Origin: an uncultured delta proteobacterium
GTDB taxonomy: Bacteria > Desulfobacterota > Syntrophorhabdia > Syntrophorhabdales > WCHB1-27
Assembly: GCA_963810935.1 (NCBI GenBank)
Contig: CAWEPK010000010.1
Location: forward strand, 256,001-320,000
Length of the DNA: 64,000 bases
Direction of reading: 5' to 3'
The notes beneath the pieces were generated by a model. It searched no databases, was not told the DNA's origin, and worked only from the letters and a program-made list of their open reading frames with translations. The translations under genes and the position numbers were made by a program. Positions 8,694 through 12,387 of the stretch are shown piece by piece; the first letter of the stretch is position 1, and each line of letters begins with the position of its first letter.

Positions 8694-8776
8694 TCCATAT
8701 GAAGTATAGGAAGCCCGGCCGGGCGGCGCAATCGCTTTGGAGCGGACAAGCTTACCGCCCCTTCAGGCAAATTGCT

Positions 8777-8805
8777 TGACACATTCGCGGCATTGCCTCA
8801 GATTA
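8777..8805 (+). promoter_or_regulatory. sigma70-type promoter
   Basis: TTGACA-N17-CAGATT upstream of the methyltransferase RBS. Confidence 0.45.
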
Positions 8806-8858
8806 TCGCATGCCGTTTGAGGCGGCATGTGCCCGAAGAAGAGAGTCAGGAGGGAAAA

Positions 8859-9464
8859 TTGAAGAACGAGATTGCAGAGCTTAACAGCCTCTGGACGCCC
8901 ATACGCCCGTACCTCGCGCGGCAGATCGGGGAGCTTTACGGCCGCACGGACGGCAGCGTCGTCGAGATAGGCCCTTTCTCCGGCCTGGCGTTCGAGCTAG
9001 CCGCGGCGGGCATCGGCGAATCATTCTGCATGGCGGTTTTCCCGCATGAGATAATCGGGCCGTTGCGTGAAGAGGCAGCAACCCAGGGGGCGGGCGGCAG
9101 GGTGCGAATTGTGGAAAGCGACCCGCAGCTTTCCGTTCTGCCGGACGGCGCCTTCGACCTCGCGGTTTTCAGGGGGGCCTTCTTTTTTCCATCGTTCTTC
9201 AAGCCCGACCTTCGGGCAATTTACAGGCTGCTGAAAGAAAAAGGCATGGCGTTCATAGGCGGCGGTTTCGGCCGGTACACGCCGCAGGAGGTCATTGACG
9301 GCATCAAGGACCGCTCGAAAGAGTTGAACCTCTCCCTGGGCCGCGTCCATTTTTCCGAAGAGGACCTGCGGACAGCCGTCCGCTCGTCATCGCTCTCGGA
9401 AAAGGCGGCCTTCATAACCGAAGGCGGCCTTTGGATAGTCCTGCGCAAAGGAAAGGAAGCGTAA
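8859..9464 (+). CDS. Class I SAM-dependent methyltransferase
   Basis: VVEIGPFSG motif I variant, FDLAVFRGAFFF, IYRLLK. TTG start at 8859 after AGGAGG (the ORF track starts at 8772). Confidence 0.75.
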   Translation: MKNEIAELNSLWTPIRPYLARQIGELYGRTDGSVVEIGPFSGLAFELAAAGIGESFCMAVFPHEIIGPLREEAATQGAGGRVRIVESDPQLSVLPDGAFDLAVFRGAFFFPSFFKPDLRAIYRLLKEKGMAFIGGGFGRYTPQEVIDGIKDRSKELNLSLGRVHFSEEDLRTAVRSSSLSEKAAFITEGGLWIVLRKGKEA

Positions 9465-9484: not shown

Positions 9485-9609
9485 GGAAAGAATCCGGCCC
9501 ACGCCAATCTTGGGGAAAGATCGTGGGCCGGATGATATAGGCTCCCGGAAAAAAGGGGGGATCGGGGGGGTCCTAAGAACCGGGAAGCCGCTATTGCTAT
9601 CGTAACTGT
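9485..9609 (-). ncRNA. Candidate sigma54-dependent small RNA with C-rich loops
   Basis: Two GC-rich hairpins with C-tract loops immediately downstream of a -24/-12 motif; no convincing ORF. Confidence 0.5.
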
Positions 9610-9619
9610 CTTAAATAAA

Positions 9620-9636
9620 TGCAATATGCGGGCCAA
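9620..9636 (-). promoter_or_regulatory. sigma54 (-24/-12) promoter
   Basis: Minus strand reads TTGGCCCGCATATTGCA, i.e. GG-N10-GC matching TGGCAC-N5-TTGC. Confidence 0.65.
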
Positions 9637-9855
9637 AAACCGGGGCTGGATTAAGAAAAAAAGCGGAAGTGTGGAAATGCAGCTAATTATTAGACTTATC
9701 GGACCACTGCCATGGCCGGTCGTTAATGATCCGCCCTGCGGGCGAAAAAGAATATACCAGATACCCTCAATACCTCAATATATCACGGTCTGCGACTGGG
9801 AAATATGCCAGAACGACTAAGGTGCATCGACAATAATTACGGATAACGGAAAGGT

Positions 9856-12313
9856 TCATTCTTTATTGTCCGGCGGGCCTACCCTCACTTTCACGATACG
9901 GTCCGGAAGCAGGTATCTCCCCGCCGTCTCATTGACTTCGTCAAGCGATACCTTCTCTATCCGCTGGGGCCAGACCTTAAAGAAACCGGGGGCCAGCCCG
10001 TACATCGTATCGAGGCACATGCTGGAGATAATGGCCCCGTTCGTCTGCATCTGTATGTAATGATTGCCGATCATATAGCGCTTGGCGTCGGCCACTTCTT
10101 GTTCGGTAAACCCCGCCGTGCGGATGCCGTCGATCTCTTCTTTCACGATGCGCTCTACGTCGGCGGCGTGAGACCCGTCGGTCCCTATGTAAATACCCAT
10201 TGCACCCACCTCGTAAGCTTCCTGGTTGAAAAAGGTAACGGCGTAGGCGAACGGGTTTTCCTCCCTGAGCTTCCTGTGGATCCTTCCCCCCATCCCTGAA
10301 AGCACTGCCCTCATCACTTCTACCGCGTACCTGTCCTCGTCGATCAGCCCCGGGCCGGGAAAACAGAAGATCAGATGGGTCTGGTAAATATTACGGATAA
10401 GCGACCTCTCCCTCGACGCATGGGGGACAAGCTCGACTTTCCGCAGTGCCCGGCCGCCGCCCGTCCAACCGGAAAAAAGGTCGCGGACGAGTTGTTCCGT
10501 CTCTTCTTTCCCGATGTCGCCCGAAAGGGCGAGCACCGCGCTTCCGGGGGCCAGGTAATTACGCCGCAGCGCCTCCAGGTCGTCCTGCGTCAGGGCCGTC
10601 ACGTCGCCTGCCGACCCTATCTGGTCCGATGCGTAGGGGTGGCCCTCGTAGAGCAATTTGTTCATCTCGGTGAAGGTATACTGCAACGGGTCGTCGTCCC
10701 TCCTGCGGATGTCGGAGAGCACCTCTTCCTTGATTCTCGCAAGCTCGTCCGGCCGGATGGCGTTCGATACGATCAGCTCCCTGACGAGGGAAAGGGCCTC
10801 TGCAAAGTCCTTCGTAAGGAACCGGCCGGACAGGCCGAAAACATTCCGTCCGCTGACCGGGCTTATGTCCCCCGCCATCAGATCGATTTTCTTCGCGATC
10901 TCCTGCGCGTCCATCTCCTCCGTCCCCCGCAGCAGCAGCCGGGACAATACGTTGAAGCTGCCGCTTTCGCCCCGCCTCTCTTCCTTGAGACCACCCACAA
11001 ACCCGATCATGAAAGAGAAACAGGCGCTTGCCGCGTTCCGGTTGTAGACGCACGTCATGCCGTTATCGAGGCGAAAGGTGAAGGGGTTCTGCTCCTTGCG
11101 CGGCAGCAGTGCAACGGTGACCCTGGCTTCCCGCCTGAGATAGACATCCAGGACCCGTATCAGGTCAGTAGCCGTGACCCGGTCAACGGCAGAAAGGTAC
11201 TTTTCGTCGTAAGCCGGGTCTCCCGTAAGCGTCTCGAAGGTGCCGAGCTCGGCGCGCCTTGCCCTGGACGGACTCTGCGCCGTACACATAGGACGCCCTG
11301 GCGATGTTCTTTGCTTTTTCGACCTCCCAGGCCCCTATCCCCTCCTCCCGCATGCGGATAAGCTCTCTCTCGAATGCCTCTACGATTTCTTCGTACCCGC
11401 GTCCCTTAAAGGTGGCGAGCAGCACAAAAATACCTCTCCGCACGGGTGTAAACACATACGAATCGGTGTCTGTGACGATCCCCTCCTTATGCTTCAGCGC
11501 AGACTGAAGGCGCGAGCTGTCCCCATCCGTAAGGATCTTCGAAAGCACATCGAGCGCAGGCGTGTCCTCGTCACTGAACGGGCCGATGGGGTAAGAAAGG
11601 GCAATGTAGCTCTCGGCCACGTCCTTCTCTATGATTTTCAGGCGGTCCTGCGCGCCCGGCGCCTCGGACGGCGGCTGTGCGCTTTTTTCGGGCGCCCCGG
11701 AAGGCGCGCCTTCAAGGATATCGAGCATAACGTCTTTATCGAAATCACCCACCACAACGACCGCCGTCCGGTCAGGCGTGTAGTGGCCCCCGAAATATGT
11801 GATTATGTCGTCCCTGCCGATGGAAGCGACCGACTGCGGGTACCCTATGATGGGCCGCCCATAAGGATGGCCGGGGTAGCTCGCCAGGAAAAGCTCGTTA
11901 AAGAGCTTGCGCTGGGGGTCGTCCTCTCCCATCTTTATCTCTTCCAGCACGACTTTCTTCTCTTTCTCAAGCTCTTTTTCGGGAAAGGCAGGGTGGAATA
12001 CGGAATCGACCAGGAGCCTTAACCCCCCTTCGAAGGCGTCGCTCGGGACCACGATGTGATAAACCGTGTTGTCGTGCGAGGTGAAGGCGTTGATGGCGCC
12101 CCCCATAGCCTCGATCTTCGGGGCAATCTCATATCCCGGCCCGCTGTCGGTCCACTTGAATATAAGGTGCTCTATGAAATGGCTGATGCCTGCAATCCGC
12201 TCGTTCTCGAAGGCGCTCCCCACCTGCACCCACACCTGGGCCGCGGCAACGCCCACGCCTTTTCTCTGGTCGATGATGCATCTCAGCCCGTTCTTCAACT
12301 GTATCGTTTCCAT
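9856..12313 (-). CDS. M16 (pitrilysin) family zinc peptidase, apparent +1 frameshift near 11251
   Basis: HFIEH inverted zincin motif, INAFTS and HPYGRPIIG in the N half. A second M16 lobe lies in ORF 9856..11289. Removing one C joins ...GKAR to ELGTF.... Confidence 0.85.
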
Positions 12314-12387
12314 GCCTTTTCGCACTCTCCAATAATAATATAATGATTTACGCGAAAGAGGAGGAGGCCTTACGCGACCGCTCGCTT

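Follow-up and report, generated by a model that had tools for sequence, protein, structure and literature searches.

Described bacterial RNAs offer several points of comparison for the locus considered here. Members of the 6C family carry long C-runs in both loops, the Vibrio Qrr RNAs combine sigma54, LuxO and Hfq features, and the CsrB/Rsm sponges display multiple GGA motifs in their loops. Among the closest systems, sX13 of Xanthomonas is portrayed as an RNA of about 115-125 nt for which Hfq is dispensable, with G-rich motifs at about 5% of ribosome-binding sites (RBSs) (PMC3771888). The 6C sRNA (Mycobacterium/actinobacteria) is described as having C-rich loops that bind mRNA directly and independently of a chaperone in a GC-rich genome (PMC6486639), the myxobacterial Pxr is placed behind a sigma54 promoter, next to the response regulator nla19, and given three stem-loops (PMC5568312), and ncS35 is reported to be confined to Burkholderia (PMC5760752).

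Here we characterize a locus within a 64,000-nt stretch of DNA (hereafter the window, to which all coordinates refer unless a contig is named), which belongs to a genome of genus g1, labelled G000. The RNA is predicted on the minus strand of a 391-bp intergenic gap flanked by a methyltransferase-like ORF (+) and an M16 peptidase ORF (-) (Table 1). We assign a probability of roughly 0.6 to the reading that it is a sigma54-dependent trans-acting sRNA, which would be co-activated with a formate dehydrogenase (fdh) operon and would pair with G-run RBSs to block translation.

Table 1. Features of the RNA locus, of promoters sharing its upstream box and of a paralogue (window positions unless a contig is given)
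Feature	Position	Strand	Remarks
sigma54-type -24/-12 promoter	9620..9635	-	TGG and TTGC invariant in 11/11 homologues; rpoN in genome
Predicted RNA	9609-9487	-	two hairpins; length ~125 nt
Predicted +1	9609	-	deduced from spacing to -12
Variable unstructured 5' leader	9590..9609	-	sequence not conserved
Hairpin P1: outer stem, U-rich internal loop, 3-bp inner helix, C-rich apical loop	9540..9589	-	
Loop-1 C-tract C7-GAT-C6, predicted seed	9555..9571	-	near-invariant; predicted open
Hairpin P2, exact 12-bp base, C4 loop at 9518-9510	9492..9533	-	also the RNA's intrinsic terminator
U-rich tail TCTTT	9487..9491	-	most g2/g6 homologues have T5-6
Upstream box 1 (18 bp, quasi-palindromic), putative sigma54 enhancer-binding-protein site	9795..9812	-	kept in 11/11
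Upstream box 2, 22-23 bp from box 1	9772..9789	-	weaker in three g1 loci
Third box-like half site	9744..9761	-	g1 only; pattern matched in 2/4 g1 loci
M16 peptidase C-terminal ORF, usual upstream neighbour, outside the RNA	9856..11289	-	Pfam PF05193/PF00675
Convergent methyltransferase-like ORF, variable neighbour	8772..9464	+	weak PF08241
Box and sigma54 promoter (L162/L172)	G000:C2:7199-7293		heads nuoE-nuoF-gltD-like-fdhA(UGA)-hydrogenase operon
Box and sigma54 promoter (L163)	G000:C12:118967		heads TRAP transporter operon
Paralogue L033	G000:C20:21684-21776	-	between PAS/LuxR-like gene and UvrD/AddA-like helicase gene

A preliminary description of this DNA had claimed a -24/-12 site on the minus strand, a hairpin with a C7-GAT-C6 loop, a second, 12-bp hairpin with a C4 loop and a TCTTT tail, and the absence of a convincing ORF. 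Each of these was found in place, the promoter start given earlier (9636) including one T too many. The site at 9635-9620 departs at one position from what we take to be the sigma54 consensus, TGGCACG-N4-TTGCW, and the 4.06-Mb genome has only 36 sites of that quality, both strands counted (~0.002 per 400 nt). The sole ORF starting in the RNA body in G000 does so at a TTG at +102. Between the predicted +1 and an invariant CCGG the leader measures 26-34 nt across the 11 homologues recovered, and a terminator scan returned a terminator-like match within P2 (9507-9494), followed by a U-tail that is weak at the window locus (TCTTT) and U6 in most g2 homologues. The neighbouring M16 gene is split over two overlapping frames in the window (9856-12325, minus strand), probably as a result of an assembly indel, and forms one open frame of ~775-855 codons in most relatives.

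Folding of positions 9609-9484 gave -46.9 kcal/mol (z -4.1), and 0 of 200 shuffles were as stable. In a sequence-only alignment of the 11 homologues, 5 of 23 pairs showed changes on both sides, a number reached by 14 of 500 shuffles; when five new metagenome sequences were added, 6 of the 23 pairs covaried (15 cells), which no shuffle out of 500 reached, slid controls giving at most 1 pair. A model-fitted alignment with paralogues, which leans toward the model, yielded 13 covarying pairs. Five of the six covarying pairs lie in P2, and the near-invariance of P1 leaves it little covariation support (1 pair with both sides changed), so that its pairing rests on folding. For 9 of 10 7-mers of loop 1 the opening energy was 0.0 kcal/mol, predicting a fully open loop; the C-rich apical loops, carried on stable stems, are predicted to be accessible, and they are conserved.

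Conservation was followed in a family sample of 22 genomes from genera labelled g1-g6, the genomes with the RNA being termed carriers. When the gap was compared with 41 genomes by BLAST, strong matches (E<=5e-16) appeared in 11, all from the window's family, and beyond the closest genomes only the two hairpins matched. A covariance model recovered the RNA in the same 11 of the 22 family genomes, which span three genera (g1, 4/4, G000 included; g2, 6/7; g6, 1/1; g3, 0/6; g4, 0/1; g5, 0/3), and in 0 of 74 genomes from the order's other families. In metagenomes, 10 contigs matched a class-specific pattern, and these yielded the five new distinct sequences. Conservation of promoter and loops, on which the preliminary description had made its reading depend, was borne out: the promoter is present in 11/11 genomic homologues (six with one mismatch, five with two) and in 10/10 metagenome matches, the loop-1 C-tract is nearly invariant, and the stems covary.

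Among the matches listed, the named records with the element are a Syntrophorhabdales bacterium, a Syntrophaceae bacterium and an uncultured delta proteobacterium, and such records point to Syntrophorhabdales as its range. A scan of named genomes, with a pattern that proved too loose, gave, among the matches listed, 7 of the first 80 loci at >=75 bits, and 0 scored in the other 39; the seven come from delta-proteobacterial/Syntrophorhabdales-type records and, their scores equalling those of earlier matches, they were not recounted. Weak matches (26-28 bits) in 3 of 150 genomes of a phylum sample were judged to be chance: one is a hairpin of repeat-like character, another falls in coding sequence, and the third is a 5' region that has neither structure nor a sigma54 site. 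Four weak family matches (model R2) had no C-loop architecture and were rejected, and one pattern run on viral contigs gave 0 matches.

We then considered which mRNAs the C-rich loops might address. By the counts of a rough in-house gene caller (3838 genes in G000), GGGGG occurs in the RBS window of 250 genes, versus 56 in a control window, and GGAGG in 1068. Both of the G-run RBSs that the preliminary description had cited from the window exist, but the ORFs behind them are just 28 and 36 codons long. The first (15228-15142, minus strand), behind a G5 RBS, is lysine/alanine-rich with an AAPKK repeat and resembles a tiny histone-like peptide; the second (49410, plus strand) ends early, possibly through a frameshift or an assembly indel, and its start presumably resembles that of an FmdB-type zinc-ribbon protein. 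An altered 16S anti-SD was rejected as the source of the G-run RBSs: the 16S tail is canonical in 5/5 genomes (four carriers and one non-carrier; the G000 assembly is without one), so the G-runs do not stem from a change in the ribosome. Across 26 paralogue families of at least eight members, with names read from example sequences, TRAP binding proteins headed the G5 shares (8/24; p 9e-5, uncorrected and with paralogues that are not independent), followed by enoyl-CoA hydratases (4/9), CoA ligases (6/24) and TRAP small permeases (5/18), an effect that weakens when the reference is the 2441 genes that have an SD motif of whatever kind.

Rank 2 of 3826 predicted targets is a CBS-domain gene (124 aa, C5:160330-160704), situated in a run that we take to be valS-nucleotidyltransferase-CBS-gatC-gatA. 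The gene is found in 17/22 family genomes, and its RBS is a G5-G9 run in 10/10 carriers and GGAGG in 7/7 non-carriers, a switch not seen in the two genes that follow it. Two further candidates from the top of the predictions, an acyl-CoA dehydrogenase and YaaH/SatP, were rejected as targets, each having lost its RBS G-run in 3/3 other carriers, which leaves a conserved G-run RBS in 1 of the 3 candidate targets compared. Genome-wide, the G-run/AGGAGG ratio is 0.097-0.139 in carriers and 0.044-0.076 in g3/g4, with an overlapping 0.086-0.133 in g5 non-carriers, and the RBS of the nuoE-like gene discussed below is G5 in 7/11 carriers and 2/7 non-carriers; as the carriers are kin, each of these correlations may be a single event. 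A gene with a G6-run RBS directly after the 6S RNA (G000:C8:312807-314679), rny-like and presumably encoding RNase Y, is another candidate target.

RBS pairing appears to us the most likely mechanism, on the grounds of precedent and of one conserved target. The RNA would fold into two GC-rich hairpins that expose their C-rich loops, and these would pair with G-run RBSs, probably without Hfq, thereby blocking translation; mRNAs whose RBSs are G-runs are thus probably silenced, the CBS-domain gene behind valS being the best candidate. A search of G000 found neither Hfq nor LSm nor ProQ, an absence made uncertain by the genome's completeness of 93%. A different mode of action would be that of a protein sponge or scaffold, in which a sigma54-dependent RNA of the same regulon offers its C-rich loops to Rho or to an RRM, KH or cold-shock protein and not to mRNAs. 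The near-invariance of the whole of P1, U-rich internal loop included, goes beyond the needs of seed pairing and would suit this alternative, as would the two of three compared targets that are not conserved and the presence of CsrA in the genome. However, the GGA motifs of the RNA all lie wholly or partly in stems and not in loops, making it a poor fit to a CsrA sponge. Pairing agrees with the switch at the RBS of the CBS gene and with the existence of a G-run class of RBSs, and it is the way in which C-loop RNAs of similar shape act (PMC3771888, PMC6486639). We consider a sponge or scaffold unlikely.

As regards the control of the RNA, each of the 11 RNA promoters is preceded by two 18-bp boxes of quasi-palindromic sequence, separated by 22-23 bp. 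The boxes lie at about -103/-81 in g2/g6 and about -202/-180 in g1, where box 2 of three loci scored -7.9 to 0.4 at a fixed 22-bp offset. This tandem operator motif is new and goes beyond the preliminary description. A box matrix built solely from the g2/g6 sRNA promoters was run on G000, and the top 3 of 13 listed box pairs were C2:7199, C12:118967 and the RNA locus, each with a sigma54 site downstream (background, 94 of 3000 random intergenic positions); such a site is missing at the fourth-ranked pair and present at the fifth, C16:139478, which lies beside an activator gene. The best models for the C2:7199 operon are NuoE, NuoF, GltD-like, NuoG-type and FdhA, all under curated cut-offs. In fdhA an in-frame UGA marks the position of the active site, the formate dehydrogenase of this operon usually being a selenocysteine enzyme, and the genes after fdhA bear what we take to be NiFe hydrogenase motifs.

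The nuoE-like gene is found in 18/22 family genomes. Upstream of it, 12/12 g1/g2/g6 genomes have paired boxes scoring 14.7-36.3, followed 79-89 nt later by a sigma54-type site (eight with two mismatches, four with three), and both are absent in g3/g5 (0/6). Thus, some genomes have this operon with the box and others have it without, and the distribution of the box follows that of the genera with the RNA. One genome, G015 (86% complete), has the fdh-type box and no RNA match. Among nine operons fetched, a UGA-containing fdhA was found in 5/6 carriers and in both g3 genomes and was absent in G019 and G015. These comparisons strongly support an operator shared by the RNA gene and the formate dehydrogenase operon. 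An enhancer-binding protein would bind the tandem 18-bp box, and the same protein would activate the RNA gene, the nuoE-nuoF-gltD-like-fdhA operon and, in G000, the TRAP transporter operon, the signal presumably being formate, H2 or redox state.

It seems to us improbable that the RNA, its promoter and its base-pairing are real and the shared box nonetheless does not denote functional co-regulation with fdh, or that the targets are other than the named G-run genes. Promoter duplication or different activators could give a shared box, the fdh and sRNA promoters being alike beyond it in some genera, and C-rich seeds yield many low-specificity target predictions; moreover, no activator gene was found among the RNA-flanking ORFs, nor did 14 stretches from relatives, taken from the surroundings of the RNA and of the fdh operon, contain one. 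Such origins of the box sit poorly with its retention at both loci across three genera despite diverging spacers, and with its disappearance where the same fdh operon has no sigma54 site. G000 has, besides rpoN, 31 PF00158 matches at ~24 activator loci. One candidate, C10:50843-52246, picked on account of a related kinase located behind a box in G018, was rejected, having close orthologues in g5 and being missing from g6 and most g2 genomes. The locus in G018, a g3 genome without the RNA, consists of a box pair and a 3-mismatch sigma54-like site before a cache-type sensor kinase (L174, G018:C25:117330), which is a possible lead to a cognate two-component system. A LexA/SOS regulon was likewise rejected, the best score upstream of lexA being 2.1 versus pair scores of 25-32 at the regulon sites; recA was not located in this check. 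A near-identical activator gene with its neighbours occurs at G000:C2:1-5500, C3:79-5628 and C3:106219-107619, reflecting assembly overlap or contamination (7% reported).

The element is real, and comparative evidence strongly supports it as a sigma54-type gene of its own. The -24/-12 site is kept in all homologues while the leader and the downstream gene vary, which argues for an independent gene and not just a terminator. Its downstream neighbour is the convergent methyltransferase in 4/11 loci, a co-directional gene in at least two and different in the rest. Were the element only a terminator or cis-element of the flanking genes, and its promoter match incidental, the terminator-like appearance of P2 with its U-tail and the M16 gene on the same strand upstream in 10/11 loci would be accounted for, but not the promoter and box belonging to every homologue, the one RNA copy that has moved away from M16, or the seven other M16 loci from which the element is absent (six from RNA-less genomes and one from the carrier with the relocated copy). 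Neither hairpin is followed by a plus-strand U-tract, and the loops are conserved, which terminators do not require; we regard this explanation as very improbable, and a role as the leader of a gene fits no better. Hardly credible is a leaderless mRNA encoding a tiny peptide, as the 10-11 codon ORF seen near +6 to +8 in 4/6 g2 copies is missing from G000, the other g1 copies, g6 and 2/6 g2 copies, and no conserved small ORF was found in the RNA among the homologues.

Two g3 loci (L253 and L254) hold related multi-hairpin, repeat-like inserts of 300-450 bp 3' of M16, at the site of the RNA in carriers. A second RNA copy is present in all four g1 genomes, and a third in G001 (i.e., 1-2 paralogues per genome). 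In the paralogues (L032-L036) both stems persist and loop 1 is shorter (AAACCCCCAU); allowing up to 4 mismatches, they have no sigma54 site. The labels given to the neighbours of L033, PAS/LuxR-like and UvrD/AddA-like helicase, are our assumption from their sequences. A second paralogue class has a conserved AT-rich upstream region behind the PAS/LuxR-like gene, and the third copy is convergent to a dnaE2-like gene.

Formate dehydrogenase is an enzyme class of interspecies electron transfer, and if the co-regulation is true, an RNA regulator would be tied to core energy metabolism. We put forward, as a tentative and on balance doubtful extension, that in syntroph-like anaerobes the RNA may serve a formate/H2/redox regulon as its post-transcriptional arm, a single sigma54 activator driving both the RNA and an NADH-linked selenocysteine formate dehydrogenase-hydrogenase operon, and the RNA muting mRNAs with G-run RBSs. 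Within this extension, and with the same reserve, a G-run in place of GGAGG could serve as a one-letter address code enriched in genes of organic-acid uptake and CoA activation, the CBS RBS could have been rewritten to fall under RNA control, and feedback may act on the operon's own first gene (the G5 RBS of the nuoE-like gene). Regulation in syntroph-like anaerobes is poorly charted, and what is gained is a clade-restricted sRNA family, a new operator motif for sigma54 promoters and a connection with formate dehydrogenase. Natural comparisons are at hand in the fdh operon, which has the sigma54 box in some genomes and lacks it in others, and in the CBS gene with a G-run or a GGAGG RBS, and both the operator and RBS pairing are accessible in E. 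coli reporters without culture of the host.

The RNA would be expected to act in the manner of sX13 and 6C and to be turned on in that of Pxr, yet the family itself is undescribed so far and lies outside each of those named. A search of Rfam 15, which the preliminary description had proposed, returned no family at its gathering threshold. The best score at the window locus was 27.1 bits versus 52, to the Streptomyces Scr3202 (RF02833), through a C-rich loop hairpin and terminator, and the best for a paralogue (L032) was 29.5 versus 79, to the Burkholderia ncS35 (RF02870; PMC5760752), likewise through a C-rich loop hairpin and terminator and with the loop motif AACCCCCAU in common. Both scores fall far under gathering, and the likeness is most likely convergence. 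The locus has no match to 6S RNA (RF00013), and the genome's 6S gene lies at C8:312807-312988. In the g6 genome, a c-di-GMP-I-GGC riboswitch-like aptamer (L011:965-1043, minus strand; 58 bits against a threshold of 59) is seen upstream of the convergent methyltransferase gene. We found no description of the RNA in the literature on sRNAs of Syntrophorhabdus and syntrophic Desulfobacterota, nor in that on formate dehydrogenase and sigma54 in Syntrophorhabdus; surveys of RNA motifs that Rfam has yet to take in could include it.

With Pxr and with the Vibrio Qrr RNAs, the RNA shares a gene behind a sigma54 promoter and diverged paralogues in some genera; unlike Pxr, it has no adjacent activator and two hairpins, and its paralogues show no sigma54 site (PMC5568312). 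Its C-rich loops are predicted to bind mRNA directly and probably without a chaperone, in a GC-rich genome, as in 6C, from which it differs in giving no 6C model match at E<=5, in a loop 2 of only C4, in phylum and in sigma54 control (PMC6486639). Measured against sX13, the window RNA has two stems instead of three, a longer C7/C6 tract, a sigma54 promoter with an upstream box, no Rfam match at E<=5 and a host of an unrelated phylum (PMC3771888). The likeness to sX13 extends to a similar length, a 5' end without structure, stable hairpins whose apical loops are C-rich, a comparable share of G-rich RBSs (6.5% here and about 5% there) and the place of Hfq, which is dispensable there and was not found here (PMC3771888).
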